Part shown: one piece after another, positions 33,333 through 64,000 of the stretch | Numbering within the stretch: position 1 is the first letter of the stretch | Layout of the letters: each line of letters opens with the position of its first letter | Sequence record: PZ445527.1 | DNA: 64,000 nucleotides | Reading direction: 5' to 3' (one strand) | From: a phage | The notes under the pieces: generated by a model | Databases searched by the model: none | The model's input: the letters and a program-made list of their open reading frames with translations, nothing else | What the model was told of the DNA's origin: nothing | Position numbers and translations under genes: made by a program

Positions 33333-33548
33333 TTAACTAATTGGCATTAGGCTAGAACTAACCCCACAAGCAATGGCGGCTATTAAACAAAGTAAGCCCA
33401 ACCGCTTTGCTAATTTAGCTTTACGCTTAAAATAATACGAATCCAGATCATTTTGGAAGTATGCAAATAATAATGAGGCCGCCATAATAAATAAGCCTAG
33501 AATGAGGGATTCAGTAGGGTAAAAGACCATTTTAATAACTCCAGTCAA
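33333..33548 (-). CDS. small membrane protein
   Basis: 71 aa, two predicted TM helices. Confidence 0.4.
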   Translation of the reverse strand: MTGVIKMVFYPTESLILGLFIMAASLLFAYFQNDLDSYYFKRKAKLAKRLGLLCLIAAIACGVSSSLMPIS

Positions 33549-33586
33549 AGGAAATTATAGCGGGGAATATTCCCCGCTAATTAAAT

Positions 33587-33994: not shown

Positions 33995-34090
33995 GATATA
34001 AACTCCAATTAATTTAATTTAAGGGATAAGATTAACACAATGTTAATCGTTATATACCCCGAACTGCTGGGGTATATAAAGTTAACACTA

Positions 34091-34342
34091 TTACGCTACA
34101 GCTTCCCATTTTTCGTTACGTTGAACAACCTTTACAACGTCGCCGGATTTAACGCGAACGTTATAAATAGTTTTCCCGTTGTTACTCCGTTCCGTTTCAG
34201 CGTAAACCGCATCAATTACATCAAACGGCATAAGCGACGCGCCTTTAATGCGTTCGGCTTTTCCGGTTAGTTCATCCGTTTTAGTAACGAAAGGAATGAA
34301 GACGGATTGACCAATTTTCGGCGCATTAGTAACGTTTTTCAT
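34091..34342 (-). CDS. hypothetical pre-early protein
   Basis: 83 aa ORF upstream of A2. Confidence 0.45.
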   Translation of the reverse strand: MKNVTNAPKIGQSVFIPFVTKTDELTGKAERIKGASLMPFDVIDAVYAETERSNNGKTIYNVRVKSGDVVKVVQRNEKWEAVA

Positions 34343-34569
34343 AGTATAAACTCCAGTTTATTTCGTGGATTGTTCCGCATTACCTGCTAAAAAGTAACAG
34401 GTAATAAGAAAAAATCCGCTCGCCAATATAATCAATTTAAAGAACTCCACTCAGGCCGCTATATCCCGTTAGGGGGCGGGGCACATTTTGGCAAGTACCG
34501 GCCGTCAAATTGTATCAAGTTATCGCTCTTATCGAACTGGGTACATCTTAAAGCCTATCGGCTAGGGTG

Positions 34570-34773
34570 TCAAACTATTTTTTGCAGTTTTTTATGATTT
34601 TCCTTCAGGTCGATCATAATATTTCGCCAGATCATTTCTAGACCTTGCTGGCGGCCTTTCTTGTACTGCTTAAATCGATATTTTACCGATCTTTGCGCTA
34701 TTGTCAATAGCTTTCTAGTATTGCCATCCAGTTTTTTGGCTGGTTTACCAGTGACTAATAAAGTTTGTTTCAT
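34570..34773 (-). CDS. hypothetical basic protein
   Basis: 67 aa Lys/Arg-rich ORF. Confidence 0.3.
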   Translation of the reverse strand: MKQTLLVTGKPAKKLDGNTRKLLTIAQRSVKYRFKQYKKGRQQGLEMIWRNIMIDLKENHKKLQKIV

Positions 34774-35446
34774 ATCTGCGATCCCTTATAATGTAATAAG
34801 TTTGCCGCCGATAGACTTTAAGATATACCCAATTTTTAAAGAGCGCGGCGGTAAACTTCCCGCCGTGTAGTTCGTCATTGCCGCCCTACGAGATAAATAA
34901 TAACAAATGCCAAAAATGGCGCAACCTTATTTTTGTAAAGAAACGTAAAGAAAGCAAATACTCGCACCGCGTCCGGCGATTGCCCAAGTTTAAAGGAAAC
35001 GGGCGCGCGGATACCATAAAATCCAGCAGATAGGCAAGTAATTTTTTCATTTATATTTGCCTTGCCCTACTTGATTTTTCTAGAATCCATCAGGTGACGA
35101 TAAACGGGCTATCCCTTTATGATGGGATACCTGAAAAATTTACCTCGTTGTAGGACGTTTTAGGCCGCTTATTTTCGAGTTAACAAATATTTAACAAAAG
35201 CAAAATTGAAAAATAGTTGTAAAAGGTATTGACTTTTAAAAATCAAGATTAAACGAGTTATTTTATAAAATTAATTAATTGACTTTTATTTGTTGTTGTG
35301 TACTAGAAAGATAGCAGACTAATAATTACTAGAATGATAATCATGCTGGTGGATTGTAACAGCCTGAACCATTAGCAGACTACTAATTCCGGAAAATCTC
35401 ATTAGCCAACTAACTATTTCCTGAGTTATAATATAAACATAAATTA

Positions 35447-35600
35447 ATGAGAAATAATAACTATAAAAATAATCACCATTATAATAATAACTATAAAAAT
35501 AATAACTATAAAAATAATCGCCATTATAATAATAATTATAAAAATAATCGCCATTATAATAATAACTATAAAAATAATCACCATTATAATAATAACTATA
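35447..35600. repeat. tandem direct repeats, about 26-27 bp unit, about 5.5 copies
   Basis: unit ATAATAA(C/T)TATAAAAATAATC(A/G)CCATT repeated head to tail. Confidence 0.85.
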
Positions 35601-35639
35601 AGAAACTATCGGTCTAAGTGAGAATCACTATCATTTAAG

Positions 35640-35721
35640 TTATTCACAAAGTTATCCACAGCACAAAATGATTTGACACGATAGGCGGCGATATAAGGGC
35701 TTATCCACAGACTTATCCACA
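35640..35721 (+). promoter_or_regulatory. cluster of DnaA boxes
   Basis: TTATTCACA (35640), TTATCCACA at 35652, 35701 and 35713 (three perfect consensus boxes), all same orientation. Confidence 0.75.
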
Positions 35722-36041
35722 GGTTTTCCTACTGTATAAATATACAGGGTAAAAAGGTAGTGTTAACGACTGCAATCAATTTTAAGCGGCCTAAATCGCT
35801 TTCTAACGAGCTAAATGATGCGGGGTAATATTAAAGTAAAGCCTCCACCCGTTGCCCTGGGTGAAGGGTATTGATATTTCTACTTTTACCGTTAACAACG
35901 AAAACGAGTAATAATTAACCTAATGTAAAGTTTTGTAAAGGTCGCCATAATCGGTGGCTTTTTTGTTATAATGCCCCTACACCGTTTGAGGACGGTTGAA
36001 AATTTTCCCAAAAAAATTTTGGAGGCTTAAAATGGTTGCGT

Positions 36042-36262
36042 ATTCTTCTTCTGACGCTCTTTTCACTGGAAAAGGCTGGGTATCAAATCGCTGGATCATT
36101 CAAGAAATGGTGCGGGAGTTCGGCATTGCTAAAACTTACACTACCATTCAGGCGCTTTATGATAATGATCAAATCGATCAGCAAACGGCGGGCTTTTTGC
36201 TGGATACCCTGAAGGCGGAACATTGTACTAAAAAACAAGCCGCCAAAATTGCTTTAATGTAA
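36042..36262 (+). CDS. hypothetical protein (73 aa)
   Basis: RBS GGAGG 6 nt upstream of ATG 36042; first gene of + strand cassette between inverted DnaA-box arms. Confidence 0.5.
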
Positions 36263-36304
36263 CTAATAACGGGGCGTTATTTTCGCCCCACTAACTAGGG
36301 GGGA

Positions 36305-36457
36305 ATGAAAATGGTTATTTTTCGATCAATTCTGGCGGGTATCTTGGGCGCTGTTTTATCACTTTTTGCCATAGCTTTCGGCGTTCACGCGGTTATTGTT
36401 GGCGCGGGTATCGCCGTTTTTTCTTATTTGCTGGGCTGCATGAGTAAAGGGGAATAA
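36305..36457 (+). CDS. small membrane protein (50 aa)
   Basis: two hydrophobic helices; G-rich RBS. Confidence 0.4.
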   Translation: MKMVIFRSILAGILGAVLSLFAIAFGVHAVIVGAGIAVFSYLLGCMSKGE

Positions 36458-36459
36458 AA

Positions 36460-36672
36460 ATGATCCGCAACGTTTCTCTTGCTCGTTCGAAAGGCTTTAA
36501 GCTGGTGGACGTTAACACGTTCGAGCGGGAAGATTGTAAAATTGAATATATAGCACGGAATAAAAACGCCTTCCGTGTTACTGAAAAGAAATTCGATAAG
36601 CGCGGCAACGTGATCGCTGAAACGGTTAGACACTTTGCCACCTTTTACGCGGCCTTTCGTGGGGTACTATGA
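36460..36672 (+). CDS. hypothetical protein (70 aa)
   Basis: ORF tightly packed after previous gene. Confidence 0.5.
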   Translation: MIRNVSLARSKGFKLVDVNTFEREDCKIEYIARNKNAFRVTEKKFDKRGNVIAETVRHFATFYAAFRGVL

Positions 36673-36794
36673 AAAGCGTTGTTATTGTTATCCTTGCAAT
36701 GGTTGGCGGTTTTACCGCCACCTTATTTAAGAATGATCCCCTTTCATTGGGGATTTTTATGCTTTTATCTGGTTACCTGATTGGGAGGTTATAA
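36669..36794 (+). CDS. small membrane protein (41 aa)
   Basis: ATGA start/stop overlap with previous ORF; TM helix. Confidence 0.4.
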   Translation: MKSVVIVILAMVGGFTATLFKNDPLSLGIFMLLSGYLIGRL

Positions 36795-36795
36795 A

Positions 36796-37140
36796 ATGGT
36801 AATTTATGAAGGCAATCGCTTTGTTACTAATTGCCGCCCGGCATTGTTAGCAAACTACTTAAACCAGCTTTCTCCTGAATATAAGGGCGTTGTTAATATT
36901 TACGAGGGAAAAGCGCATTATAAGATTAATGCGGTCGTTGCCCGTGAACTAGCGTTTCAATTTTTGACCTTTGCATCTTGTGATATTCAGGTCATGGGGG
37001 AGGCGTTAATCGCAGAAAATGAAAATGATTTTATTAATATTTTTCGCAAAGTATGCACCGAGCGCCTGATAATGAAAGGCGCATATATTCAATCCACTGC
37101 GGATAGTATTGAAACAGCGTTTCGAAAGGTGGCACAATGA
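36796..37140 (+). CDS. hypothetical protein (114 aa)
   Basis: RBS GGGAGG then ATG 36796. Confidence 0.5.
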   Translation: MVIYEGNRFVTNCRPALLANYLNQLSPEYKGVVNIYEGKAHYKINAVVARELAFQFLTFASCDIQVMGEALIAENENDFINIFRKVCTERLIMKGAYIQSTADSIETAFRKVAQ

Positions 37141-37155
37141 AATTATATATTTTCG

Positions 37156-37434
37156 TTGGTAATAGTAAGGCAGCTAATGATTCCGCTGGGGGCGATAACG
37201 TTCGCCACTATTGGCAAAAATATATTTACTAGGGTTATTATGAGCAATAAAATTATTATAACTAAAACTACCACAATGGTAGACGTTTTTTACGTGCCCG
37301 ATACGCCGGAAAACCGGCAAGCGGTCGAGCGGGGTGATTATGGTAGCGTTATTTATGATGCCGATGGCTATTATCGGCATTTGGTCGATTCCTATGGGGA
37401 AGAGGAGAAGATCACGCATCGACTACCAGACTAA
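37156..37434 (+). CDS. hypothetical protein
   Basis: 92 aa ORF, start uncertain. Confidence 0.35.
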   Translation: MVIVRQLMIPLGAITFATIGKNIFTRVIMSNKIIITKTTTMVDVFYVPDTPENRQAVERGDYGSVIYDADGYYRHLVDSYGEEEKITHRLPD

Positions 37435-37469
37435 TAATAACGGGGCGCAACTATCAGGGAGTGCCCCCA

Positions 37470-37507
37470 ATTCTCAAATGAGAATCATTCTCAAATGAGA
37501 ATGATTC
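37470..37507. repeat. overlapping near-perfect palindromes TCAAATGAGAAT(C/G)ATTCTCATTTGA
   Basis: dyad symmetry read directly; flanked by GGGGCGC...GTGCCCC inverted repeat. Confidence 0.8.
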
Positions 37508-37747
37508 TCATTTGACCGCGCCCGCGATGGTTAGCCTGCTAATGATTAGGGTGTTACGTGTCGCCTTGTGTGATCGTTAGCTCGCTAACTAATTTTCAAG
37601 CCTCCTCCAATTTTGCCCTTGTTTTAGTATCCCCGCCAAAATTAAACGCGTTAGAATGCGATTCAGGACGTTTTAGCGGTATATTAGAATTATTCACTGC
37701 ATAGGAATACTGTATAAATATACAGTAGAATAACCTGGGGATAAGTC

Positions 37748-37816
37748 TGTGGATAACGCTTCAAAATGGCTAGGATTCTGTCAAGTCAAATCGTGCTGTT
37801 GATAAGTCTGTGGATA
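37748..37816 (-). promoter_or_regulatory. DnaA boxes in inverted orientation
   Basis: TGTGGATAA at 37748-37756 and 37808-37816 (reverse complement of TTATCCACA), preceded by palindrome TACTGTATAAATATACAGTA (37708-37727). Confidence 0.75.
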
Positions 37817-37839
37817 ACTTAAATAACAGTGTTTCTCAC

Positions 37840-38047
37840 TTCCGTTTTTAAATGCGAATCATTATCATTCGTATTCCACTATCTAACCGATAATCATTCC
37901 ACTTTTTAAATGAGAATCGTTTCACTTCTTGAATAGTTCTCATTCCCTTTCTTAAATGCGAATAATTATCATTCGCATTTCACTTTTTAAATGAGATTGA
38001 TTCTCATTATCATTCGCATTCAGGCGAGCAGGGCAATTGCCCTGCGC
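37840..38047. repeat. array of AATG(C/A)GAAT...ATTCGCATT palindromic motifs ending in perfect 18-bp palindrome GCAGGGCAATTGCCCTGC
   Basis: repeated TTTTTAAATG(A/C)GAAT units and dyad-symmetric AATGCGAATAATTATCATTCGCATT. Confidence 0.75.
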
Positions 38048-38050
38048 TTT

Positions 38051-38276
38051 TGTGCAAATCCGACATCTGCTCCAAGGGTTACGTGCTGGCGTGTATGTGC
38101 AAATCCGACAATTTTTGGTAGTGTGCAAATCCGACCCGAAAAATTTTTATAGTGTGCAAATCCGACGACGAATCTGTCTCCCAAAAACTCCAGCAATCAC
38201 GAACTGCGTTCGAATCCTGTGGGATATGTGCAAATCCGACATGGTTTTTCTAGGATTAAGATGTGCGAATCCGACA
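38051..38276 (+). repeat. six direct 14-mer iterons GTGCAAATCCGACA (one variant GTGCGAATCCGACA)
   Basis: copies at 38051, 38097, 38123, 38154, 38228, 38263; irregular 25-75 bp spacing; same orientation. Confidence 0.85.
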
Positions 38277-38605
38277 AGATTTTTGTGACTTCGATTGAAG
38301 GGTGTGTGATTGTGTGGGTTTGAGGAGAAGATGAGAGAGCGAGAGAAATTTTGGGACTAGAAGGATGTGGGCGCAGGATTGGTGCGGAGCACCTGATTTG
38401 CGGGGATTTTGGGGAAGATGTGGGATAATTTGGGAAGATTTGAGATAGGTGCAGAAAAAGTGAAATTTTATTAGCAAAATGGGGCAAAATAGCTTGACAA
38501 GTGAAAATTTCTGTGGCTCTAAAAACTCAGGCAATCATGGGCCTTCGGCCCGAAATAATGCTGCTATTTTCAGGAGAGTAGGAGTTCCTAAAAACTTAGG
38601 CGTTT

Positions 38606-38654
38606 GTGCAAATCCTACCATAAATTTCTAGAATATCAATGTGCAAATCCGACA
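38606..38654 (+). repeat. two further copies of the 14-mer iteron
   Basis: GTGCAAATCCTAC (38606) and GTGCAAATCCGACA (38641). Confidence 0.8.
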
Positions 38655-56164: not shown

Positions 56165-56529
56165 TAGATCTCCCTGATGTTAGAATTTGGCTCAGCTTTT
56201 TGTTAACCCAGAAGCAAGATAAAAACTGGAAGGCAGGCTTGCTTTTCTCTTAACCACTAGGCTACTTTTGGGTGCTAGCATTCCGGTGAGATTGATGGTC
56301 TCGGTTAAGAAGAAAAACACGGGACTTCTGTTTTAACGTCGTGCTCCCGGATTGATGCGACTACGTGATTGCTCGCGCTAAGACAATGGCTATCTAAAGT
56401 CTTAGCTTCTACATTTATACTCCTGGATAGCATGGAGTTGCAGTCTACTTCCTGCTGTCACGCCCGGTCATTTATAGAATGTGGACTCTCTTCTCAGCAA
56501 GTTCTGGCACTATGGCCTGATCTTCTGTT

Positions 56530-56604
56530 TGGTAGTTAGTAGTGGAATCGAACCAGGTTCCACGGTTTACAAGACCGTTGCATCGCCAGCAATGCTTTAA
56601 GAGC
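56530..56604 (-). tRNA. tRNA-Thr(UGU)-like element with unpaired acceptor stem
   Basis: CCA end, T-loop TTCGATT, perfect anticodon arm ACGGT-CTTGTAA-ACCGT, D-arm GCAT-TGCTGGCG-ATGC; the 5' seven nucleotides do not pair with the 3' acceptor strand; abuts HNH gene stop. Confidence 0.35.
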
Positions 56605-56996
56605 TATCGTTGTCTTGTTGAAACTCTATTTCTGGCCCTATGCGTAGAGGTCATAGAGTGGCAGTTAGGGCAGAGAATCTTTAGATTTTCTGGAGAACAG
56701 TTAGTTGCATCTCCATCTATATGATCTACCTCAGTTAAAACTGCTCCGTCAATTGGATGTTTCCCATCCCAACCACATACTTCACAAGCAGTACCACGAG
56801 TATCCCACAGCCACTTCCTAACAAAAGGTTTTAATTGTGCAGCTTTACCAGTATAACCAGGTTCTTCACCTGCCAGCCACTTTAATACTTTTTGCTTTGT
56901 CTGGTACTCCTGCTGACAAGCAGGACCACAATACTTACCTGCGGAACCTCTACTTTTAGGTTTTGTGATTCCGCAATTTAAACAAGTAAACTCCAT
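56604..56996 (-). CDS. HNH endonuclease with N-terminal zinc finger
   Basis: CLNC...CGPAC zinc finger and HNH motif EVDHIDGDATNCSPENLKILCPNCHS. Confidence 0.75.
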   Translation of the reverse strand: MEFTCLNCGITKPKSRGSAGKYCGPACQQEYQTKQKVLKWLAGEEPGYTGKAAQLKPFVRKWLWDTRGTACEVCGWDGKHPIDGAVLTEVDHIDGDATNCSPENLKILCPNCHSMTSTHRARNRVSTRQR

Positions 56997-57160
56997 GTTG
57001 CTTCCTATTTCAACGGGATTTCTTTTTCAATAACAAGGGCTTATCAGTCATAACTGTCATTGCCATTTGTTGTAGAAATTCAAAGGTGAAGGCTACACGT
57101 TCTTCACCAATCTCTACTTCTACACGTTTCTTTTGTTTGTCAACCTTTAATTTTAGGCTA

Positions 57161-57382
57161 TCAGCCATCTTCGGATTCTCGTTGCTCGGCTACTGCTAGC
57201 CAGTCTGGTAAAAGAAACTTAGTACGAAACTCTTCATACGTTTCTTCTGGATAAAAGCTAAAACCCCCTTTCTCATCATTCAAGATAACAGAGCCGTCAG
57301 TTTGTTCATATGCTCGATATGTTTCTCCAATAATGATAACTCGCTTATCAGTACTTTTATTACGAAACTCAAAAACGTGCAT
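57161..57382 (-). CDS. hypothetical protein
   Basis: 73 aa ORF. Confidence 0.4.
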   Translation of the reverse strand: MHVFEFRNKSTDKRVIIIGETYRAYEQTDGSVILNDEKGGFSFYPEETYEEFRTKFLLPDWLAVAEQRESEDG

Positions 57383-57398
57383 AACGTTTCCTTAAAGT

Positions 57399-57474
57399 TG
57401 GAGCGGCTAGAGGGAATCGAACCCTACTCAGCGAGGCTTGGAAGGCCTGCGACACAACCCGTGTGCTTAACCGC
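57399..57474 (-). tRNA. tRNA, anticodon tentatively UCC (Gly)
   Basis: encoded CCA, T-arm TAGGG-TTCGATT-CCCTC, 7-bp acceptor stem with one G-U; anticodon loop CTTCCAA; atypical short D-loop. Confidence 0.5.
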
Positions 57475-57482
57475 TTATTGTT

Positions 57483-57557
57483 TGGCAGGGGATATTGGAT
57501 TTGAACCAATGATCTCGACTTCAAAGGCCGTTGTGCTAACCGTTACACTACTCTCCA
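57483..57557 (-). tRNA. tRNA-Gln(UUG)-like
   Basis: perfect T-arm ATTGG-TTCAAAT-CCAAT, D-arm GTGT-AACGGTTA-GCAC, anticodon loop CTTTGAA, CCA encoded; acceptor stem pairs poorly (4 of 7). Confidence 0.4.
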
Positions 57558-57648
57558 ATTGTTTGGCTGGAGTGCCTGATTCAATCCCAGGCACCTTCGG
57601 AGTCAGAGGCCGACGACTTGACAATTGATCTACACCTCAAGAATACTA

Positions 57649-57885
57649 TTAACTAGATGCTGGTTCTGCTGGCTGAGATACAGCAGGCTGTTCTAATGTA
57701 TCTGGTGCTGATACAGAGAAAAGAGCTTGTAATGCTGCAATATCACGCTCGTAAGTTTCAATACGAGTAGTAAGAGTATCTACCATCTGTTTATGATAGG
57801 CTAAGTTATTCTGAGATTCATCTCGAAGGGTTTGCAGTTCTGCAAGACGTGTTAACATAATTTCACTAATTAAAGCATTACTCAT
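57649..57885 (-). CDS. hypothetical protein
   Basis: 78 aa coiled-coil ORF. Confidence 0.45.
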   Translation of the reverse strand: MSNALISEIMLTRLAELQTLRDESQNNLAYHKQMVDTLTTRIETYERDIAALQALFSVSAPDTLEQPAVSQPAEPASS

Positions 57886-58075
57886 TTGTTTCTCCTAAAT
57901 TTTCCGGTTCTTCTAAACGTTTGCCTTCATGATCTACTCGAATAACTCCGCATCCTTCGCAAATCACAACTGCACCATAACCTTCTTTGACTTCAGCTTC
58001 TGTAATCAAACCAGAAAGATCACCAGTATCTCTGCCCCACATATCAATGGAGCATTGTTTGCAGAAATCAGCCAT
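57878..58075 (-). CDS. zinc-ribbon protein
   Basis: CKQC ... CEGC. Confidence 0.45.
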   Translation of the reverse strand: MADFCKQCSIDMWGRDTGDLSGLITEAEVKEGYGAVVICEGCGVIRVDHEGKRLEEPENLGETNE

Positions 58076-58100
58076 ATTTTATTTCCTATTTAAGTTAATT

Positions 58101-58177
58101 TGGGGTGGCTAGTGGAACTCGAATCCACATAGGCCTGATTCACAATCAGGATCATTAACCAATTATGATATAGCCAC
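58101..58177 (-). tRNA. tRNA-His(GUG)
   Basis: hand-folded cloverleaf: acceptor GTGGCTA/TAGCCAC, D-arm TCAT/ATGA, anticodon arm CCTGA-TTGTGAA-TCAGG, T-arm GTGGA-TTCGAGT-TCCAC, discriminator C, CCA encoded. Confidence 0.85.
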
Positions 58178-58406
58178 AATTGAAAACTCGCAGGGTTAGC
58201 GAAACCATCCTCAATTAGCATGTTCTAGAATACTAATCAAGTTATCTCCTATTGCACGCAGCTCAAGACGAGTACGAATTTTCAATTGTGGCGGCTCTCA
58301 GAAACTCTTCTATTCTAGCCTCAGAAGCTTACCCCCGAACGCATGTCGGGAAAGTCTTTCCAAGCGCATCAAATAGCACCGTTACACTTTGAGCCATTGA
58401 TGTATC

Positions 58407-58476
58407 AAGGAATAGAAGGACTTGAACCTTCATGAGTTAGACCATTTAACTCAACCGCTTTTTAGGGTATATTTCT
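58407..58476 (-). ncRNA. aberrant tRNA-like element
   Basis: canonical T-arm GAAGG-TTCAAGT-CCTTC and acceptor-like ends, but only one internal hairpin (TGAGTTA-AATGGTC-TAACTCA); no separate anticodon arm found. Confidence 0.3.
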
Positions 58477-58543
58477 AGGAGTGGATGTTCCTAGTAAACC
58501 TATTCGGCAGTCCCGTCTACCAATTCCGGCATATTCCAAGATT

Positions 58544-58638
58544 TGGAGGTAGGTAAGGGGATCGAACCATTACACCGTATCACTACGGTCAACCGATTTC
58601 AAGTCGGAGTCCATCGCCAGCCGTTGGATTGACCTACC
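58544..58638 (-). tRNA. tRNA-Ser(UGA)
   Basis: acceptor GGTAGGT/ACCTACC, anticodon loop CTTGAAA, long variable arm ACCGTA-gtga-TACGGT, T-loop TTCGATC, CCA encoded. Confidence 0.82.
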
Positions 58639-58650
58639 TTATAAATTGTT

Positions 58651-58735
58651 TGGTGGGTTAGGAGAGACTCGAACTCTCACGCACTTAAGCAAGGGCTTCT
58701 AAGACCCTCGTGGCTACCAATTACACCACTAACCC
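58651..58735 (-). tRNA. tRNA-Leu(UAG)
   Basis: acceptor GGGTTAG/CTAACCC, anticodon arm AGGGT-CTTAGAA-GCCCT, long variable arm, perfect T-arm GAGAG-TTCGAGT-CTCTC, CCA encoded. Confidence 0.8.
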
Positions 58736-58741
58736 CTAATT

Positions 58742-58816
58742 TGGTGGACAGTAGGAGAGTCGAACTCCTCACTCCTGAGTGCAAGTCAGGTATTTTCCCA
58801 GATAAACTAACCGCCC
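58742..58816 (-). tRNA. tRNA-Ala(UGC)
   Basis: acceptor GGGCGGT/ACTGTCC (two G-U pairs), anticodon arm CCTGA-CTTGCAC-TCAGG, T-arm AGGAG-TTCGACT-CTCCT, CCA encoded. Confidence 0.82.
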
Positions 58817-59185
58817 AAATTCTTTAATTTACTAAGGCTATTAGCTCGGCGTAACTACAGCACCTTCGCTTCAAGCGGAAGGAACCGCGTCATCTCGCAA
58901 ACCCAATACACTATTCAGTTGCCGCTGAATCTAGTGGACTAATCTAGAACTTCTCCCGAGTCGTAGGGATCGTGCTTTTTGGCAGCCAGTCCTAGGTCGA
59001 GCTAATACCTTAGTGAATTATGATGAGGATTTCTCCCATATCAATTTATATAAATATTATAACAAGAAATTAATCATCAAGCAATTGAGTTTTTCTTGAA
59101 ATTGGTAGCGGGTTCCAGTACTGCCCTGGACTTACTTAGCTTATGAGACTAAGAAGAACTCTATGCCTTCCACCCGCAATTGTTT

Positions 59186-59309
59186 GGTTATTCTAGACAG
59201 GATTCGAACCTGTTATCACTTGTGCGGACTTACGAGAACCATTCTTTCACTCGAATCGAACGAGCTTCTGCCCTAGCCAAGCTGGTTTCCCCATCAACCA
59301 CGCTAGAAT
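59186..59309 (-). ncRNA. about 121-nt tRNA-like element containing two T-arm-like hairpins
   Basis: perfect 7-bp acceptor-like pairing ATTCTAG/CTAGAAT enclosing D-arm-like TGGT-TGATGGGGAA-ACCA and T-arms GCTCG-TTCGATT-CGAGT and ACAGG-TTCGAAT-CCTGT. Confidence 0.3.
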
Positions 59310-59431
59310 GTTTGATTGTTTTCAGTGCAAGAGTCCGAGTCTTGGACACGACCGTTTCGCAAGTACATAGGCAGCTTATCATGAGTCAGCACTTCCGAAT
59401 TGCTAGCCCCGTGTTCTGCACTGAAATTTTA

Positions 59432-59779
59432 TTAGTTTAACCGTAAAGTATTATCTAATTCACCATTAATTGTTCGGCATTCCTCTGGAATTGCTGGTGT
59501 GGCCTTGTATTCCCACCACTCAGCACCATCATATTCCCCACGTTCTAGCCAAGTTCCGTCGGCAAACCATACATTACCATAAAGTAATTGTCCACCGTAT
59601 CCAGAATCATACTCAAAGTCTAGGTTATCAAGAAAATCCTCAATATCTTCTTCTGTATAGCCTAAAGGTAATACCCAAACTTTTTTATCCCCATAATACC
59701 CGAATTCTATTTTAATACACTTAATTTTAGAATTGGTATTTTTTAAGGCAAGTAACAACTCTTCTTTAGCATTACGCAT
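59432..59779 (-). CDS. hypothetical protein
   Basis: 115 aa ORF. Confidence 0.5.
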   Translation of the reverse strand: MRNAKEELLLALKNTNSKIKCIKIEFGYYGDKKVWVLPLGYTEEDIEDFLDNLDFEYDSGYGGQLLYGNVWFADGTWLERGEYDGAEWWEYKATPAIPEECRTINGELDNTLRLN

Positions 59780-59802
59780 AGTATATTCTCATACTGAATT
59801 AA

Positions 59803-59879
59803 TTTGGCGCGACTGATGGGATTTGAACCCACATTCCCTCCCGTGATAGGGGAGTACCATTACCAAGCCAGCCACGGTC
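59803..59879 (-). tRNA. tRNA with atypical anticodon loop CTATCAC (anticodon uncertain)
   Basis: CCA encoded, T-arm GTGGG-TTCAAAT-CCCAT, acceptor 6 of 7 paired, perfect anticodon stem CTCCC/GGGAG. Confidence 0.45.
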
Positions 59880-59890
59880 GCATAATTTAT

Positions 59891-60076
59891 TTACTCAGCT
59901 TTGAGTTTTTCAATAGCTGCATTAAGTTCTTTAAGAAACTCTTTTCGTACATTAAGACGATTGAGACTTACTAGTATATCATGTTTAAGTTCTTCGATGT
60001 ATTTCTTCTCAACTTCAATATTGTTGATAGTGCTATCACGATGAACTTCTAGCTGCGCAATCACATTCTTGGACAT
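59891..60076 (-). CDS. hypothetical coiled-coil protein
   Basis: 61 aa ORF. Confidence 0.4.
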   Translation of the reverse strand: MSKNVIAQLEVHRDSTINNIEVEKKYIEELKHDILVSLNRLNVRKEFLKELNAAIEKLKAE

Positions 60077-60178
60077 GCTTGTTTCCTCAGTTATTAATGA
60101 AAATGGTATCTGTGGCTGAATTAGATGTCAGCAATGATAGCTGGTTGGCTACCGGTTTACTTAACTCTACACAGAATT

Positions 60179-60261
60179 TGGCGGGCCGTGTAGGATTCGA
60201 ACCTACGTTGTCTTTCGACACGGATTAACAATCCGCCGCCAAACCGCTTGGCTAACGACCC
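60179..60261 (-). tRNA. tRNA-Asn(GUU) with unusually long variable region
   Basis: acceptor GGGTCGT/ACGGCCC, D-arm GCCA-AGCGGTT-TGGC, anticodon arm GCGGA-TTGTTAA-TCCGT, 13-nt variable region GTCGAAAGACAAC, perfect T-arm, discriminator G, CCA encoded. Confidence 0.65.
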
Positions 60262-60416
60262 TAAAAAATTTATATTGCTGACTAGGGTTTTCACCTAGAC
60301 GGAGTTAGCACCGTAGCGTGTAGCGGCATACCTCTCCAAACCGTGCCTCATCTTTCAATTACGGAGACAGTGTTCCTACGCGTGCCTGAATTGATTTAAC
60401 AATTCTTTCAGCAAAT

Positions 60417-60492
60417 TGGACGACCGCATGAGGATTGAACTCACATAAAAAGGATTTGCAATCCTTCGCCTAAGCCATTCAGCCAACGGTCG
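60417..60492 (-). tRNA. tRNA-Cys(GCA)
   Basis: acceptor CGACCGT/GCGGTCG, anticodon arm AAGGA-TTGCAAA-TCCTT, T-loop TTCAATC, CCA encoded. Confidence 0.82.
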
Positions 60493-60670
60493 ATTTATCT
60501 TGTTTTTCGAGATCTTCAAACTCTAAATCATTGAAGTTCCCTAGAGTACGGGTATAGAACCCATCCCCTGCGTCATAGCCTGATTTACCACAATCACACA
60601 TTTTAAATTCGCGCAGGTGTGTGAAAACATGTTCAGAACCACAACACTTAAATCTAACTAATCGTTTCAT
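60479..60670 (-). CDS. zinc-finger protein
   Basis: 63 aa; CCGSEH...CDCG motifs; 3' end overlaps tRNA-Cys by about 14 nt. Confidence 0.4.
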   Translation of the reverse strand: MKRLVRFKCCGSEHVFTHLREFKMCDCGKSGYDAGDGFYTRTLGNFNDLEFEDLEKQDKSTVG

Positions 60671-61009
60671 TAGCTTCTCCAGTTCAATTTATGTAATTAT
60701 TATATAGAACTTTTGGGAACTAAGCAACTACATTTTTTAAGAATTTGATGCCTTTCTTTTTCTTCTTATATTTCCACGTTAATGGATTCTGTCGATTATG
60801 AACGCTTGAGATCTTTGTCTCGTCAAAGTTCTTCAATATCATGTAATCACAAGATAATTGTTCTAGTGGAATGTGATCACCGTCAAAAGCGTATACATAA
60901 GGCTGTTGACTAGCACGATAATGATAGACTTTGTTAATTCTACGTTTCAGCGACTTATCCGCGCAGTAAATAAAGAAGTTTTAAGGGTGCATCAGCATCT
61001 CCTTCAATT

Positions 61010-61093
61010 TGGTGCATCGTGCTGGATTTGAACCACCAACCCCGAAGGGCACGGATTTACAGACCGCTGCAATAGCCATTCTGCCAACGATGC
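61010..61093 (-). tRNA. tRNA-Tyr(GUA)
   Basis: acceptor GCATCGT/ACGATGC, D-arm GCAG/TTGC, anticodon loop CTGTAAA, long variable arm GCCC-ttc-GGGG, discriminator A, CCA encoded. Confidence 0.82.
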
Positions 61094-61143
61094 ACATTTA
61101 AAAGTATTCAAATACTAGTTTAAACACTTTTAAATATGTTTCC

Positions 61144-61160
61144 AAATTAGATAACTATTA
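61144..61160 (-). promoter_or_regulatory. extended -10 promoter element upstream of tRNA-Tyr
   Basis: - strand TGGTATAAT (reverse complement of 61147-61155). Confidence 0.4.
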
Positions 61161-61221
61161 TACCAAGTTTTAAGGCACTGAGCAAGTCAGATTTTGAAGA
61201 ACTTGCTCAGTGCTGTATTAG

Positions 61222-61506
61222 TTAGTCGAACTTAGGAGTGACAGATAAGGAGAACGGAAGTTCAAAAACTTCTTCACCCTCATTACTAACGGTAACTACA
61301 CGACCTTTAAGTTCAGACATTAAAATATCAATATCAGCTTTTGCATCTGGAGCCATGCCAGCTTCAATACATTTAGCTTTAACTTCCGGTAAAAGCTCTA
61401 CGTTATAGAGATAGAGCCACTCAATCTCACCTTCCCAGTCTTCCCAGTCTTCCCAGGATTTGCAGATTGCACTTTCAATACCAGTTGCTACAACACGATT
61501 TTGCAT
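61222..61506 (-). CDS. hypothetical acidic protein
   Basis: 94 aa ORF; repeat WEDWEDWEGEIEW. Confidence 0.5.
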   Translation of the reverse strand: MQNRVVATGIESAICKSWEDWEDWEGEIEWLYLYNVELLPEVKAKCIEAGMAPDAKADIDILMSELKGRVVTVSNEGEEVFELPFSLSVTPKFD

Positions 61507-61539
61507 TCGTTAACTCCTTCATCAATTTATATAACTATT

Positions 61540-61580
61540 ATACCAGAAATTTAAAGCAAAAGGCAAGTACATTTTTAAAA
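61540..61580 (-). promoter_or_regulatory. early sigma70-like promoter
   Basis: - strand TGGTATAAT (reverse complement of 61543-61551) then ATATAAATTGATGAAGGAG RBS region. Confidence 0.45.
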
Positions 61581-61596
61581 ATTCTGTTTGGAGGAG

Positions 61597-61803
61597 CTAA
61601 ACTCCAGATTCTTCTGCCAAGTCTAGACTAATAAGAGTTATAGCCATAATTGCTGCACCGTGTTCTTTTTCTCCGGTGTTTTTAGCAGAGTCTATAATAT
61701 CCTTAATCTGTTCGTAATAACTTTTTACTTCTTGTTCAATGCCTGCCTCGGCTATCATGCCTTTAGTCATGAGTCGTTGCATGGTAATTTCAGTATTAGC
61801 CAT
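61597..61803 (-). CDS. hypothetical protein
   Basis: 68 aa ORF. Confidence 0.45.
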   Translation of the reverse strand: MANTEITMQRLMTKGMIAEAGIEQEVKSYYEQIKDIIDSAKNTGEKEHGAAIMAITLISLDLAEESGV

Positions 61804-61978
61804 GTTGTTTCTCCAGTTTCATTTTTAATAGTTTACAAATGAAATCAACGTCTTCATCCGTGCCTAGATCTCTATCTTCAAGGGTTGCCTTGAAATTTTT
61901 TGTTAGTTCCATAAGAATAACTTCCCTGGAACGACGTGTTGGCGGGGGTGGATGTCTATACATCTTATTTCCTTAATT

Positions 61979-62053
61979 TGGTGGGTCGGAGGAGAATCTA
62001 ACTCCTACTCGTTAGCTTATGAGGCCACCGCTTTAACTTTAAGCTACCGACCC
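61979..62053 (-). tRNA. tRNA-Met or Ile2 (anticodon CAU)
   Basis: acceptor GGGTCGG/CCGACCC perfect, D-arm GCTT/AAGC, anticodon loop CTCATAA, T-arm AGGAG-TTAGATT-CTCCT (atypical T-loop), CCA encoded. Confidence 0.65.
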
Positions 62054-62059
62054 TATGTT

Positions 62060-62148
62060 TGGCGGAAGAAGTGGGAATCGAACCCACAAGGCTATATTTC
62101 AAACCGACAGATTAGCAATCTGCTGCAATACCGTTATGCTATTCTTCC
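62060..62148 (-). tRNA. tRNA-Ser(GCU)
   Basis: acceptor GGAAGAA/TTCTTCC perfect, anticodon arm GCAGA-TTGCTAA-TCTGT, long variable arm, T-arm GTGGG-TTCGATT-CCCAC, CCA encoded. Confidence 0.8.
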
Positions 62149-62168
62149 GAATTTATAAATATATTATA

Positions 62169-62687
62169 TTAGAAATTTAGCTTCATAGCAAGAAAATTTT
62201 TCAAGTTTTCGGTAGACATCTCATCCACATCTACAGGAGAAACAAATCCATTTAATTGTCTAGCAAATTTTTTACCAGCAGGATCATTATCCCCAACAGC
62301 TACCAATTTAAAAGGTAGTAATTTCAATTGCTTTAATAGCGCTTTTCCTGGAGAAGAACCCAACATTGCCAAGGCTGGATAACCAGCGTTATGTAACGCA
62401 ACTGCCTTAAATACAGATTCAGCAATCAATACCACTTTTTCATCTCCATTGAGAGTTTCTAGTCCCCATACACACTGTGTAGTAGAATAAGTAAAATATC
62501 TAGCTTCAAAGGGGCACTTACCATGACCTTTTGGAGCAGAAGGATTATAAGTCTGATAGCCTCTCAACATCCCAGAGAAGTCATACAATGGGACTGTTAG
62601 CCATCCTTCCGGGCTTAACCAGCAATGATATTTATCTGTATCAAACCCTCTAGATAAGAGATGTTCTGTTAGTTCATCAACAGTCAT
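62169..62687 (-). CDS. Toprim-like domain protein
   Basis: 172 aa; LIAESVFKA (conserved Glu) and GDNDPAGKKFA (DxD) resemble a Toprim fold. Confidence 0.4.
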   Translation of the reverse strand: MTVDELTEHLLSRGFDTDKYHCWLSPEGWLTVPLYDFSGMLRGYQTYNPSAPKGHGKCPFEARYFTYSTTQCVWGLETLNGDEKVVLIAESVFKAVALHNAGYPALAMLGSSPGKALLKQLKLLPFKLVAVGDNDPAGKKFARQLNGFVSPVDVDEMSTENLKNFLAMKLNF

Positions 62688-62783
62688 ATTTGATCCCCTA
62701 GTTAGTTGTATAAATACATTATACAGAAAAGCCCTGCGCTCTCCAGTGAACGCAGGGCTTACTTCGAATATTACGTGTGGGTA

Positions 62784-63731
62784 TTACTTGTTACGCATAT
62801 CCATAATCATTTGGCCATCGTAACCAGTGCCAACCACAGTCTGCGGTACACCACCTTGATACTTCTGAGCACGAATCATTTCAACTTCTAGTTGCTTCCA
62901 GCGAATCATCTCAGGAGTAATGGTACGTTGCAGAGCGGCGTTAGCTTCAGCTTCTTTCTTAGCTGCGTACAGTTTAGCATCTGCATCACGTTCGTTTGCA
63001 ATAGCTTGGTTGTTACGAGCTTCACGATCTGCTTCTGCTTGTTTAACCTTCTGCTGTGCTTCTTGTTCAACACGAGCCAACTCAGCTTTCGCAGCATTAA
63101 CTTGTTCTTCACGAACTTTGGTATTCTGTACCTGTTCCATGATTACAGGCGGCAAAGTAATATCCTGAAGGAACACTTGCTTAACTGTGTAACCATAAGG
63201 GCGTGCATACTCTTCAACTTCCTGTTGAATTGCAGTTTGCAATTGAGCCTGAATTTTAGCATCAAACAAATCTTGTGCTTTAGGTACAGACTTACCAAAC
63301 TCACGAATAGTAGACAGTAATTTTTCAGTTACATACTTGTCTAGTGCCTGATCCTGAGTACCTGCATTAATACGGTTAATCGGTGCCTTAGAACCATCAA
63401 ACTGCAACATAACAGTCAGGTCAACAGTGGATTTAAACTTATCCTGACTAGGAACCTGAAGTTTATCTAATTTTACAGCAATATCTTTTGTACTGAAAGT
63501 ATCGAAAGATGCAAACGGGTTTACAATATGGAAACCAGGTAATACTGGATTAGGGTCTACTTTACCAAGAAATGTTTGGGTTTTAACCGTACCATCAGAA
63601 ACAATAGTATATGAATTAAAAGCTAGGATTAAACCTGCTAAACCAACTACAGCACCAATACCCCAACGTTTAATAGTACGGATTACTTTCTGCTCAGAAG
63701 TCAGTTCTTTCATATTTTTAGTAGCAAACAT
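62784..63731 (-). CDS. SPFH/Band-7 (prohibitin/HflK-like) membrane protein
   Basis: N-terminal TM helix, SPFH-like core, long C-terminal Ala/Glu/Gln-rich coiled-coil. Confidence 0.65.
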   Translation of the reverse strand: MFATKNMKELTSEQKVIRTIKRWGIGAVVGLAGLILAFNSYTIVSDGTVKTQTFLGKVDPNPVLPGFHIVNPFASFDTFSTKDIAVKLDKLQVPSQDKFKSTVDLTVMLQFDGSKAPINRINAGTQDQALDKYVTEKLLSTIREFGKSVPKAQDLFDAKIQAQLQTAIQQEVEEYARPYGYTVKQVFLQDITLPPVIMEQVQNTKVREEQVNAAKAELARVEQEAQQKVKQAEADREARNNQAIANERDADAKLYAAKKEAEANAALQRTITPEMIRWKQLEVEMIRAQKYQGGVPQTVVGTGYDGQMIMDMRNK

Positions 63732-63764
63732 ATATTTCCTTTGTTTTAGTTACAGTTAATAAAA

Positions 63765-63839
63765 TTGGCCGAGGTGACAGGATTCGAACCTGCATAAAGG
63801 AATTTAGAAGACTCCTGCCTCTCCCTTAGACTACACCCC
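63765..63839 (-). tRNA. tRNA-Arg(UCU)
   Basis: acceptor CGGGGTG/CACCTCG, D-arm GTCT/AGGC, anticodon arm GGAGT-CTTCTAA-ATTCC, T-loop TTCGAAT, CCA encoded. Confidence 0.82.
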
Positions 63840-64000
63840 GTTTAAGTATTTTTAAGAACTCTCGTAAAAACTCTTAAAAATACAGACGATACCGGGAGAG
63901 TCATAAGTCTCACTCATTAAGTATTTCAAGACAAAATACAGTAACGTCTATTATTTTCCAGTTTAAGTCAGGGTGACTTAGTGGTTATGTCCTGCGGTAT

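Follow-up and report, generated by a model that had tools for sequence, protein, structure and literature searches.

The window, a stretch of 64,000 nucleotides of phage DNA (PZ445527.1), contains at 56530-63840 the early tRNA region of a T5-like phage (Demerecviridae), encoded on the minus strand as are all features described below. This region shares 94-96% identity with T5-like phages and is matched by about 541 phage records. ARAGORN called 12 tRNAs on the minus strand (Gln-UUG, His, Ser-UGA, Leu-UAG, Ala, Asp, Asn, Cys, Tyr, CAU, Ser-GCU and Arg-UCU), 11 of which scored 44-61 bits in Rfam (threshold 29 bits); the best Rfam match of Ser-UGA was a long-arm tRNA. Canonical genes were found for tRNA-His(GUG) (58101-58177), tRNA-Ser(UGA) (58544-58638), tRNA-Leu(UAG) (58651-58735), tRNA-Ala(UGC) (58742-58816), tRNA-Asn(GUU) (60179-60261), tRNA-Cys(GCA) (60417-60492), tRNA-Tyr(GUA) (61010-61093) and tRNA-Arg(UCU) (63766-63840), together with a CAU tRNA (61979-62053), which, like BF23 tRNAI2, lies immediately upstream of tRNA-Ser(GCU) (62060-62148). 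All ten cloverleaves that a sequence-only reading had regarded as clean were borne out by ARAGORN and Rfam, and the 3′ CCA that it had reported for nearly all of them is encoded in 12/12 ARAGORN tRNAs. The window phage has lost half of its tRNAs in comparison with HdH2 (12 vs 24), and the tRNA content of its relatives ranges from 12 to 24.

The five loci that had been marked as aberrant are real, although boundaries, T-arm or CCA details had to be corrected at some of them. Non-canonical tRNAs, pseudogenes and tRNA-derived RNAs had been offered as explanations, and each fits some of the loci, but the loci do not belong to one class: they comprise two conserved tRNA-like RNAs and three strain-specific damaged or recombinant tRNA genes.

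The locus at 56530-56604 is a chimeric tRNA remnant whose parentage could be read directly from identity to the parents. Its first ~55 nt are tRNA-Thr(UGU), identical to HdH2 tRNA-Thr, and its last 26 nt (TGGTTCGATTCC...CCA) are an Epseptimavirus-type tRNA-Met, identical to GSW6 tRNA-Met. The junction, which was found in no other phage record, is located at the T arm and abuts an 11-nt identity (GGTTCGATTCC). The acceptor is defective as had been noticed (2/7 pairs, no acceptor helix), but the supposedly perfect T stem forms only 3/5 pairs, and the Rfam score is 24.5 bits vs 47.3 for BF23 Thr. The suggestion of a pseudogene holds for this locus, with recombination as its origin, and its sequence identifies it as a deletion scar, the Thr::Met fusion probably marking where DNA from the T arm of one tRNA gene to that of another was lost. 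Directly upstream lies a 130-aa HNH endonuclease ORF (56604-56996), with Pfam HNH and HNH_3 both above cut-offs, whose HdH2 orthologue is annotated as an HNH endonuclease and abuts tRNA-Thr.

Allele comparison indicated that tRNA-Gln(UUG) (57483-57557) is a hybrid, with a BF23-type 5′ half and a T5-type 3′ half: one allele group matches it at 100% over positions 1-39, the other over positions 30-77, placing the crossover within the shared anticodon stem-loop CGGCCTTTGA. This gene was probably assembled from the two divergent alleles by recombination in that stem-loop. The resulting mismatches are A4·C69, G7·A66 and A27·A43, and the Rfam score is 44.6 bits, vs 46.8 (BF23 Q1) and 54.5 for the parental alleles. 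The locus had been listed as aberrant, but it folds as a cloverleaf, the outcome that the sequence-only reading had named as counting against it, and is called tRNA-Gln(UUG) by both ARAGORN and Rfam; the mismatches are nonetheless real. The hybrid scores almost as high as BF23 Q1 and may still work. Adjoining it, a tRNA-Gln(CUG) pseudogene (57565-57639), absent from the sequence-only reading, has a broken D stem, an acceptor with a mismatch, nine private positions and a T arm (CCTGGGATTGAATCAGG) that, apart from 2 substitutions, reads as the BF23-type T arm reverse-complemented. It scored 20.0 bits in Rfam vs 58.5 for BF23 and received no ARAGORN call even at -ps70. Inversion of the T hairpin, along with further changes, probably killed this gene. 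It has no exact match in IMG/VR and no other record carries the same sequence, and over the full length of the Gln(UUG)-Gln(CUG) stretch no phage record exceeds 82% identity, a result that for the hybrid covers this two-gene stretch only.

The third gene of this kind, tRNA-Asp (59805-59881), differs from the same allele in relatives by three changes: G8U, G34A, which gives the anticodon AUC, and G67A, which creates a C6·A67 mismatch. The closest of 50,697 phage records matches it at 96.9% over 96 nt (3 mismatches), and none of these records carries the changes. The locus had been placed at 59803-59879 among the aberrant elements; ARAGORN and Rfam call it tRNA-Asp (44.5 bits vs 49.0 for T5/BF23), with the odd anticodon and the mismatch as its true anomalies. 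The Thr::Met fusion, the hybrid Gln(UUG), the dead Gln(CUG) and the Asp changes are all lesions private to the window phage, and they are probably by-products of the recombination by which tRNA genes are reshuffled and lost in this dispensable region. In principle, the changes in tRNA-Asp and tRNA-Gln(CUG) could be assembly or sequencing errors. The loci 57483-57557 and 59805-59881 both continue to score as tRNAs, and the consequence of their private lesions is uncertain.

That tRNA-Asp(AUC) and the hybrid tRNA-Gln(UUG) still function as tRNAs, perhaps even as selected variants that, for example, escape a tRNA-targeting defence, is possible if rather doubtful. Both are called by ARAGORN at Rfam scores (44.6 and 44.5 bits) well above the threshold, and G8U brings back the canonical U8 in tRNA-Asp. 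Nevertheless, both have gained acceptor-stem mismatches, with an extra 27·43 mismatch in Gln(UUG). A34 takes away a major AspRS identity base from tRNA-Asp and is, to our knowledge, essentially absent from bacterial tRNAs other than tRNA-Arg. Neither this tRNA-Asp sequence nor the two-Gln stretch occurs in another phage record, and the adjoining Gln(CUG) is clearly defunct, a sign of relaxed selection in this genome. Anticodon-loop changes, on the other hand, are described as letting phage tRNAs evade nucleases (van den Berg 2023, as summarised in a citing paper).

The two conserved elements map, together with a third, onto RNA1, RNA2 and RNA3 of BF23, which the curated BF23 record (GenBank AJ604530) labels 'tRNA-like RNA with unknown functions', an annotation that the sequence-only reading had missed. 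RNA1 has its core at 58407-58538 (the BF23 feature maps to 58396-58539) and is derived from a class II tRNA-Leu. It consists of an acceptor (58532-58538 paired with 58408-58414), a retained D arm, a two-helix insert of 48 nt (58459-58506) capping the anticodon-position stem, a long variable arm (58434-58452) and a canonical T arm (58415-58431). The element had been delimited as 58407-58476, which is only its 3′ half, since the 5′ acceptor strand lies ~60 nt further upstream; the T arm is perfect as described, but CCA is not encoded. Rfam's tRNA model covers BF23 RNA1 end to end (25.9 bits). RNA1 was found in 493 of the ~541 phage records matching the region. In 27 homologues spanning three genera, pairing holds in 95.5% of cells and 11/37 pairs show double changes, vs <=2 in slid controls, and the insert helices covary too.

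RNA2 (about 59185-59310) has an acceptor of 7-8 bp and a D arm of 5 bp, then a long central arm that holds a second T-loop-like hairpin with the loop TTCGATT, and at its 3′ side a canonical T arm. The boundaries given earlier (59186-59309) hold; the acceptor (7 bp) is intact, and an anticodon loop is missing. CCA is encoded in the window phage and its relative L010, and is absent in T5 and most other relatives. RNA2 was found in 437 of the ~541 records, and its covariance model also matches ordinary tRNAs (14-27 bits). Among 22 homologues from five lineages, 98.4% pairing was obtained, a value inflated by fitting the alignment to the covariance model; double changes at 23/37 pairs (<=5 in slid controls) still lie far above the controls. 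Unpaired motifs of RNA2 are kept from Escherichia to Pectobacterium phages.

Both RNAs occur in several phage genera, and in Klebsiella and Serratia homologues the acceptor-stem sequences are entirely different while pairing is preserved. Structure read-out revealed a 7-nt anticodon loop in neither RNA; a structured insert replaces it, indicating that they could not decode. Both have been kept despite the loss of half of the tRNAs. The proposal of tRNA-derived structural RNAs is thereby upheld for these two loci, in which the folds are backed by covariation: judged from sequence, RNA1 and RNA2 are conserved, tRNA-shaped orthologues of the T5/BF23 tRNA-like RNAs and are predicted not to decode.

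RNA3 (60103-60176) and a CAU tRNA-like RNA, element F (59098-59181), neither listed earlier, probably belong to the same class. RNA3 is closed by a terminal helix of 6 bp, with UA-CCA after it, and contains a central hairpin as well as a T-like hairpin whose loop is 8 nt, but no D arm; it is conserved at 96-99% identity in 24/25 related loci, with one covarying pair only. Element F, with CCA encoded, is a homologue of T5/BF23 tRNA-fMet according to its alignment to the tRNA-Met(CAU) of BF23, JLBYU40 and Eps7. In place of the D and T arms of that tRNA it has other sequences that still pair, the D loop lacking GG and the T loop lacking TTC. Three of its pairs covary, 5/25 related loci share 98-100% identity, and it was found only by ARAGORN at -ps80. 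The region further contains a conserved but non-canonical tRNA-Gly(UCC) of T5/BF23 type (57399-57474), also missing from the earlier list, which matches 13 loci at 100% identity over 78 nt, among them BF23 tRNAG1, itself identical to the T5 counterpart per the BF23 record. Default ARAGORN missed this gene; only ARAGORN at -ps80 and Rfam's tRNA-Sec model (30.9 bits) picked it up.

From the observed identity, structure and conservation of RNA1 and RNA2, we infer processing and possibly a mimic function. What both RNAs retain, namely acceptor stem, D arm and T arm, makes up the 'top half' and elbow of a tRNA. The RNAs may be cut from polycistronic tRNA/ORF transcripts by tRNA-maturing enzymes, with RNase P recognising the acceptor/T-arm helix and 3′ trimming next, and could then build up as stable RNAs. 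As tRNA mimics they might engage a protein that recognises the tRNA top half, a candidate partner being a host tRNA-targeting or tRNA-modifying factor, with no decoding role. We favour this reading, and an account with two classes, conserved tRNA-like RNAs with a tRNA-mimic role and private lesions, seems to us probable.

A processing signal, or a mimic acting through the acceptor/T-arm half, is possible for both RNAs. It is nevertheless unlikely that they are cis-acting processing punctuation only, that is, tRNA-shaped RNase P/RNase E entry sites between tRNAs, stable RNAs and small ORF mRNAs with no role after release. In BF23 the order RNA1-RNAI-RNAIII-tRNA-His has features abutting without gaps, and the acceptor and T-arm halves, which suffice for RNase P, are intact, but punctuation would need neither conserved covarying insert domains nor the second T-loop hairpin and conserved single-stranded motifs of RNA2, and ordinary tRNAs already punctuate the whole cluster. 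That all five loci are neutral, decaying pseudogenes without function is very unlikely. While 56530-56604 and 57565-57639 clearly are pseudogenes and tRNA content varies among relatives, RNA1 and RNA2 persist in 437-493 records from several genera, and neutral remnants would lose pairing, which stands at 95-98% with 11 and 23 compensatory changes; this covariation across genera argues against neutrality, as do the unpaired RNA2 motifs kept from Escherichia to Pectobacterium phages. Laboratory T5 can do without parts of the tRNA region, since its deletion mutants 29191-32442 and 30661-38625 are viable (PMC11464382), and the region counts as dispensable there. Coordinate mapping of L003 indicates that the former removes RNA1 and the latter RNA2 and RNA3, so that RNA1 and RNA2 are dispensable there. 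Laboratory dispensability would also be expected of a neutral remnant.

An intron-containing tRNA-Leu(UAA), spliced to a decoding tRNA, is a very improbable reading of RNA1, and RNA2 could be read likewise. With introns allowed (-i, default stringency), ARAGORN reads 58407-58538 as a tRNA carrying an intron of 41 nt, the JLBYU40 orthologue is annotated as tRNA-Leu(taa) (134 nt), removal of 40 nt from aligned T5/BF23-type RNA1 would yield the canonical loop CUUAAAA, and both the D loop (GAAUUGGUAGA) and the long variable arm resemble those of tRNA-Leu. However, the insert (41-48 nt) is far below the size of a self-splicing group I intron, matches no Rfam intron family and sits at 32/33 or 33/34, no known splice position; Enterobacteria, as far as we know, lack a tRNA splicing endonuclease. 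The restored loop is not conserved, giving AAA in the window phage and neither U33 nor a sensible anticodon in the other Tequintavirus clade, Epseptimavirus and Sugarlandvirus; the insert helices covary as a structural domain would, and the discriminator is U, although LeuRS requires A73. The earlier idea of decoys for host anticodon nucleases is disfavoured and highly improbable for RNA1 and RNA2, since these nucleases recognise and cut the anticodon loop, which neither RNA has. T5 tRNAs are known counter-defences, as tRNA-Lys neutralises PARIS (PMC11464382) and tRNA-Tyr rescues retron Eco7 toxicity (as cited in PMC10644984), but the known T5 counter-measure supplies a functional tRNA that resists cleavage, not a decoy (PMC11464382). 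On the whole, the oddities of the cluster are real, but they are mostly either known already from T5/BF23 annotation or ordinary.

The 56.4-64.0 kb region is 94-96% identical to T5-like Salmonella and Escherichia phages (Demerecviridae, Markadamsvirinae), is matched by 541 phage records and carries its genes on the minus strand throughout. ARAGORN called 12 tRNAs in the window, 11 of which scored 44-61 bits against the Rfam tRNA model (threshold 29), the twelfth, Ser(UGA), fitting best as a long-arm tRNA; CCA was encoded in 12/12, with an A-rich trailer next. These calls, the scores and the encoded CCA bear out the ten clean cloverleaves that the sequence-only reading had folded by hand. The same region of the close relative HdH2 holds 24 tRNAs, by comparison with which the phage of the window has lost about half of its set. 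A genuine T5/BF23 tRNA-Gly(UCC) at 57399-57474, 100% identical in 13 loci, was missed both by default ARAGORN and by the tRNA model, and a CAU tRNA-like element at 59098-59181 is homologous to tRNA-fMet of T5, but its D and T arms have been swapped for different, still paired sequences without the GG/TΨC elbow motifs.

The same reading had set apart five loci with good T arms and CCA ends on defective acceptor or anticodon arms, as possible non-canonical tRNAs, pseudogenes or tRNA-derived RNAs. The observation is real, and its interesting part had been annotated before in T5/BF23. The hand-curated BF23 tRNA-region record from the Ksenzenko laboratory (AJ604530; NC_042564) lists RNA1, RNA2 and RNA3 as "tRNA-like RNA with unknown functions", and BLAST mapping placed their counterparts on the minus strand at 58396-58539, 59186-59310 and about 60103-60176, respectively. 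Two of the five loci are therefore previously annotated elements: 59186-59309 is RNA2, and 58407-58476 proved to be only the 3' half of RNA1. The three RNAs are orthologous to those of BF23/T5, with identities of 94.5% over 146 nt for RNA1 (3237-3381 of the BF23 tRNA region), 97.6% for RNA2 (5702-5826) and 97.5% for RNA3, and they keep strand and order relative to tRNA-His, tRNA-Ser, tRNA-Asp and tRNA-Asn. RNA1 lies, as in BF23 and in transcript order, downstream of tRNA-Ser(UGA) (in BF23 with a small ORF between) and upstream of RNAI-RNAIII-tRNA-His, and RNA2 lies between the homologue of ORF trn 2.10 (59432-59779) and the next tRNA.

In RNA1 (core 58407-58538), the 3' acceptor strand that hand folding had left unpaired pairs with a strand about 120 nt upstream, giving an acceptor helix of seven positions, 6/7 paired, with a terminal U·U. 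This is followed by U8 and G9, a 3-bp D stem with the loop GAAUUGGUAGA, similar to that of the window's tRNA-Leu(UAG), a 6-bp stem at the anticodon position that leads into a 48-nt two-helix insert instead of a 7-nt loop, a long variable arm of 6 bp, and a canonical T arm (GAAGG-UUCAAGU-CCUUC). The fold was recovered by RNAalifold, and in an alignment of 27 distinct homologues, Epseptimavirus and Klebsiella Sugarlandvirus among them, 95.5% of cells were paired with 11 compensatory double-change pairs, against 39-48% paired and at most two compensatory pairs when pairing partners were slid by 1-3 columns. Of the six core acceptor pairs, four were altered on both strands in the Klebsiella phages with pairing kept. 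Relative to BF23/T5, RNA1 of the window differs by a private U-to-C change and by an additional A beside the insert, neither of which affects the fold.

In all, 493 phage records contain RNA1. It is variously left without annotation, called a hypothetical protein or labelled tRNA-Leu(taa), and its 58407-58476 part scored 22.2 bits with the Rfam tRNA model, under the 29-bit gathering threshold. The label tRNA-Leu(taa), given in one RefSeq record (JLBYU40) to a 134-nt feature, would make it a spliced tRNA, and ARAGORN with introns allowed does return a tRNA with a 41-nt intron. The insert of 41-48 nt, however, falls far below the size of a group I intron and matches no Rfam intron family, its location at 32/33-33/34 is no recognised splice position, and its helices themselves covary. 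Removal of the insert would leave the loop CUUAAAA only in T5/BF23-type phages, with AAA in the window and nothing anticodon-like in other clades. The cyanobacterial and plastid tRNA-Leu(UAA) is likewise a tRNA-Leu body broken in the anticodon loop, but by a self-splicing group I intron of about 250 nt between U34 and A35, whereas RNA1 has a short two-helix insert and no conserved restored anticodon. On these grounds of insert size, position, anticodon and covariation, we reject splicing, and RNA1 looks like a descendant of tRNA-Leu that was turned into a non-decoding RNA.

For RNA2 (59185-59310), the close relatives were too alike to inform, with one covarying pair, so a wider set of homologues was taken from Epseptimavirus, Sugarlandvirus, Pectobacterium phage DU_PP_V and Serratia phage Slocum, and 22 sequences from five lineages were realigned with a covariance model built for the purpose. 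In this alignment, which is fitted to the model, 98.4% of cells were paired and 23 of the 37 pairs were compensatory, compared with at most five in the slid controls. The acceptor helix of 7-8 bp (7/7 positions paired) differs wholly in sequence in the Klebsiella and the Serratia phages; the D arm has 5 bp and a loop containing GGGG; the long central arm has conserved unpaired motifs; the stem at the anticodon position runs on into an insert of about 50 nt, without an anticodon loop; and the 3' T arm is canonical. A second T-loop-like hairpin lies internally, with a covarying stem (GCTCG, GCTTG, TACGG, GCTGG) around a constant loop UUCGAUU (TTCGATT). CCA is unencoded in T5 and most relatives; the AACCA of the window, in place of GACA in T5, is located where recombination has joined RNA2 to the next element, and leaves the fold unaffected. 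Neither the Rfam tRNA model nor default ARAGORN recognised 59186-59309, while the RNA2 covariance model weakly matched ordinary tRNAs, a sign of the tRNA-likeness of the scaffold. A 50-aa minus-strand ORF overlapping RNA2 (59230-59382) was set aside, as the substitutions are of RNA type with compensatory pairs. A 14-base RNA2 motif had at least 120 loci in IMG/VR; among the 66 screened with the covariance model, four were kept, all from T5-like genomes of about 110-120 kb, the other 62 being chance matches.

RNA3 (60103-60176) is almost invariant, with weak covariation. Also listed in AJ604530, as stable RNAs of unknown function, are RNAI, RNAIII, RNA 2H, RNAIV and RNAX. Orthologues of RNAIII and RNAI occupy 58179-58395 (minus strand), that of RNAIII being 100% identical in 10 loci, and the orthologue of RNA 2H at 58820-59020 (minus strand) has a fold z of -4.07 and a terminal helix of about 17 bp. 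Between RNA2 and the homologue of ORF trn 2.10, an element of 108 nt at 59317-59424 (minus strand) has a long-range helix of 10 bp (UUCAGUGCA...UGCACUGAA) closing it and a fold z of -3.05; its identity is 96-99% across 23 related loci, and it is unannotated in the BF23 record. The 784-nt RNAX of BF23, which adjoins tRNA-Arg, contains an unannotated Rfam tRNA match of 39.6 bits at 14153-14224 of the BF23 tRNA region; its counterpart runs upstream from window position 63841, and the equivalent of this match lies past 64000.

The remaining three of the five loci represent ordinary recombinational and mutational damage particular to this genome. Up to its T stem, 56530-56604 is the tRNA-Thr(UGU) of HdH2, and its last 26 nt are identical to the Epseptimavirus-type tRNA-Met of phage GSW6, the junction adjoining an 11-nt identity, GGTTCGATTCC, common to both T arms. 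The deletion behind this Thr::Met chimera took the remainder of Met, tRNA-Ile and one ORF. Two of the seven acceptor pairs are left and the Rfam score is 24.5 bits (threshold 29), as against 47.3 for the BF23 tRNA-Thr, with a 7-nt anticodon loop on a 5-bp stem present. Homing endonucleases are known from the T5-like tRNA region, and an HNH endonuclease gene lies directly upstream of the chimera; a causal role for it in the deletion is speculation. The adjacent 56174-56529 includes a 345-nt non-coding stretch between an acetyltransferase-like ORF and the tRNA-Met remnant, which has 90-95% identity to its counterpart in Epseptimavirus genomes such as GSW6 and S124 and is absent from T5, BF23 and HdH2.

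Recombination between alleles accounts for 57483-57557, a tRNA-Gln(UUG) whose nt 1-39 match BF23-type phages and whose nt 30-77 match T5-type phages, both exactly; in this hybrid, as in the Thr::Met chimera, each part is identical to an intact parental gene or allele in relatives. Since its acceptor strands come from different alleles, it bears the mismatches A4·C69 and G7·A66, together with one at 27·43, and four of seven acceptor pairs are Watson-Crick. The locus 59805-59881 is a tRNA-Asp with G8U, G34A (anticodon AUC) and G67A (C6·A67 mismatch), with 6/7 acceptor pairs and no phage record nearer than three mismatches. Both are called by ARAGORN, have 7-nt anticodon loops on 5-bp stems and reach Rfam scores of 44.6 and 44.5 bits (above 29), respectively, and the Gln hybrid may still be functional. 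By comparison with the relatives, the changes in 56530-56604, 57483-57557 and 59805-59881 appear private to this genome.

Beside the hybrid, the tRNA-Gln(CUG) at 57565-57639, which the hand folding had not listed, is dead. Its T arm is the reverse complement of a normal T arm with two substitutions (15/17 positions fit, versus 9/17 in direct orientation), which points to a hairpin inversion; the D stem and acceptor are damaged too, ARAGORN makes no call, and Rfam gives 20.0 bits (57567-57639) versus 58.5 in BF23. The aberrant T arm had no exact match in IMG/VR, and the best full-length match in the phage collection was 82%. Among 5,217 aligned bases, 51 positions were private, nine of them in Gln(CUG), a count that overlooks two of the Asp changes because these bases occur in an unrelated allele; besides Gln(CUG), no clear enrichment of private substitutions was seen in tRNA genes. 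Seven private substitutions also fall within 18 bp at 62700-62717, an intergenic segment upstream of a primase-like ORF (62169-62687).

Several further features of the cluster were observed. An A follows the encoded CCA in 12/12 tRNAs and AA in 10/12 (CCAAACAAU, CCAAAUUAA; e.g., 57476-57482 and 58736-58741), and the A trailer also stands behind RNA2, the Gln(CUG) pseudogene and the Thr::Met chimera; it may be a common 3'-processing signal. The tRNA-Asn (60179-60261, minus strand) has 83 nt with a variable-region insertion of about 10 nt in the Rfam alignment, odd for a class I tRNA, and its BF23 counterpart is annotated as 78 nt. A non-coding spacer of 155 nt (60262-60416) separates tRNA-Asn from tRNA-Cys; 11 related loci have it at 97-99% identity, and its position in BF23 is filled by ORF trn 2.8. 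Compared with HdH2, tRNA-Val, tRNA-Lys and tRNA-Pro are absent (window 58817-59431 versus 4191-5992 of the HdH2 counterpart), and tRNA-Phe, tRNA-Trp and tRNA-Glu are gone beside an intact tRNA-Tyr (61010-61093 versus 7409-7749). Similarity to HdH2 stops where Phe and Tyr have their 3' ends, a pattern suggestive of a further deletion between tRNA genes, with no chimera left.

RNA1 and RNA2 are conserved, structurally constrained RNAs that keep the top half of a tRNA and do not decode. RNase P and the 3'-end enzymes recognise the acceptor/T-arm helix, so the two would probably be cut from the polycistronic transcript as the flanking tRNAs are; the BF23 features adjoin without gaps (AJ604530). 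In T5, RNA1 and RNA2 map to 30501-30645 and 32959-33084. Viable T5 mutants carry deletions of 29191-32442 and 30661-38625 (PMC11464382), the former spanning RNA1 and the latter RNA2 and RNA3, which makes RNA1 and RNA2 accessory in the laboratory. No description of experiments on T5 RNA1-3 or of T5 small-RNA sequencing was found in the literature searched.

Among the roles to be weighed, the sequence-only reading had offered decoys for host anticodon nucleases, which RNA1 and RNA2 are unlikely to be because they have no anticodon loop. A tmRNA, with a tRNA-like domain and a tag reading frame, was found nowhere in the window by ARAGORN in tmRNA mode or by Rfam, where even at E ≤10 nothing appeared but chance matches and weak ones to tRNA or tRNA-Sec. 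Our best guess, weakly held, is that RNA1 and RNA2 could be tRNA mimics working via the top half. The fuller form of this guess, which we consider rather unlikely, is that they are a family-wide non-decoding pair in Demerecviridae whose intact acceptor, T arm and elbow would titrate a host factor acting on the top half, or redirect it; as part of the same doubtful proposal, the targets might be toxins directed at the CCA end or acceptor, enzymes that modify or repair tRNAs, or an immune sensor that responds to tRNA damage. If the mimic reading were true, RNA1 and RNA2 would be RNA-based anti-defence or host-takeover effectors, unlike the 'replacement tRNA' strategy of T5. Given that T5 tRNAs neutralise tRNA-cleaving immune systems, both are reasonable candidates for RNA-based counter-defence.

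Two tRNA-shaped RNAs with covariation-supported folds, although conserved across several genera of a family that serves as a phage model, have been without an assigned function for decades. Automated annotation handles RNA1 and the T5-type tRNA-Gly inconsistently, and with RNA1 variously mislabelled and tRNA-Gly missed by defaults, phage tRNA counts in T5-like genomes are unreliable. The strain-specific chimeras, ordinary in themselves, display how tRNA genes are lost and shuffled, through recombination at conserved tRNA segments and hairpin inversion.

Large deletions in the T5 tRNA region, removing blocks of tRNA genes, are viable (Glukhov et al. 2018, as cited in PMC11464382), and their natural equivalents in the window are the Thr::Met fusion and, beside Tyr, the absence of Phe, Trp and Glu; set against the mutants as cited there, the Thr::Met deletion has its end-points inside two tRNA genes and left a chimeric gene. 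The tRNA-Lys of T5 neutralises PARIS (PMC11464382), and its tRNA-Tyr acts against retron Eco7 (as cited in PMC10644984). These anti-defence tRNAs share with RNA1 and RNA2 the cluster and the accessory status in the laboratory, but they are decoding tRNAs with altered anticodon stem-loops, whereas RNA1 and RNA2 are incapable of decoding. Unlike T5, the phage of the window has no tRNA-Lys gene and is accordingly predicted to be PARIS-sensitive. The species 1 and 2 RNAs of T4 (rnaC, rnaD) also sit inside a phage tRNA cluster, are stable, about 120-140 nt long and beside a homing-endonuclease gene, and rnaC has a canonical T arm adjoining the helix that closes the termini, as in the tRNA-like RNAs of the window. 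They are without a D arm or Leu-like features, they belong to the unrelated family Straboviridae, and homology was rejected, with only T-loop matches of 7-11 nt; by this comparison of architecture, rnaC and rnaD appear to be the closest analogues of RNA1 and RNA2.
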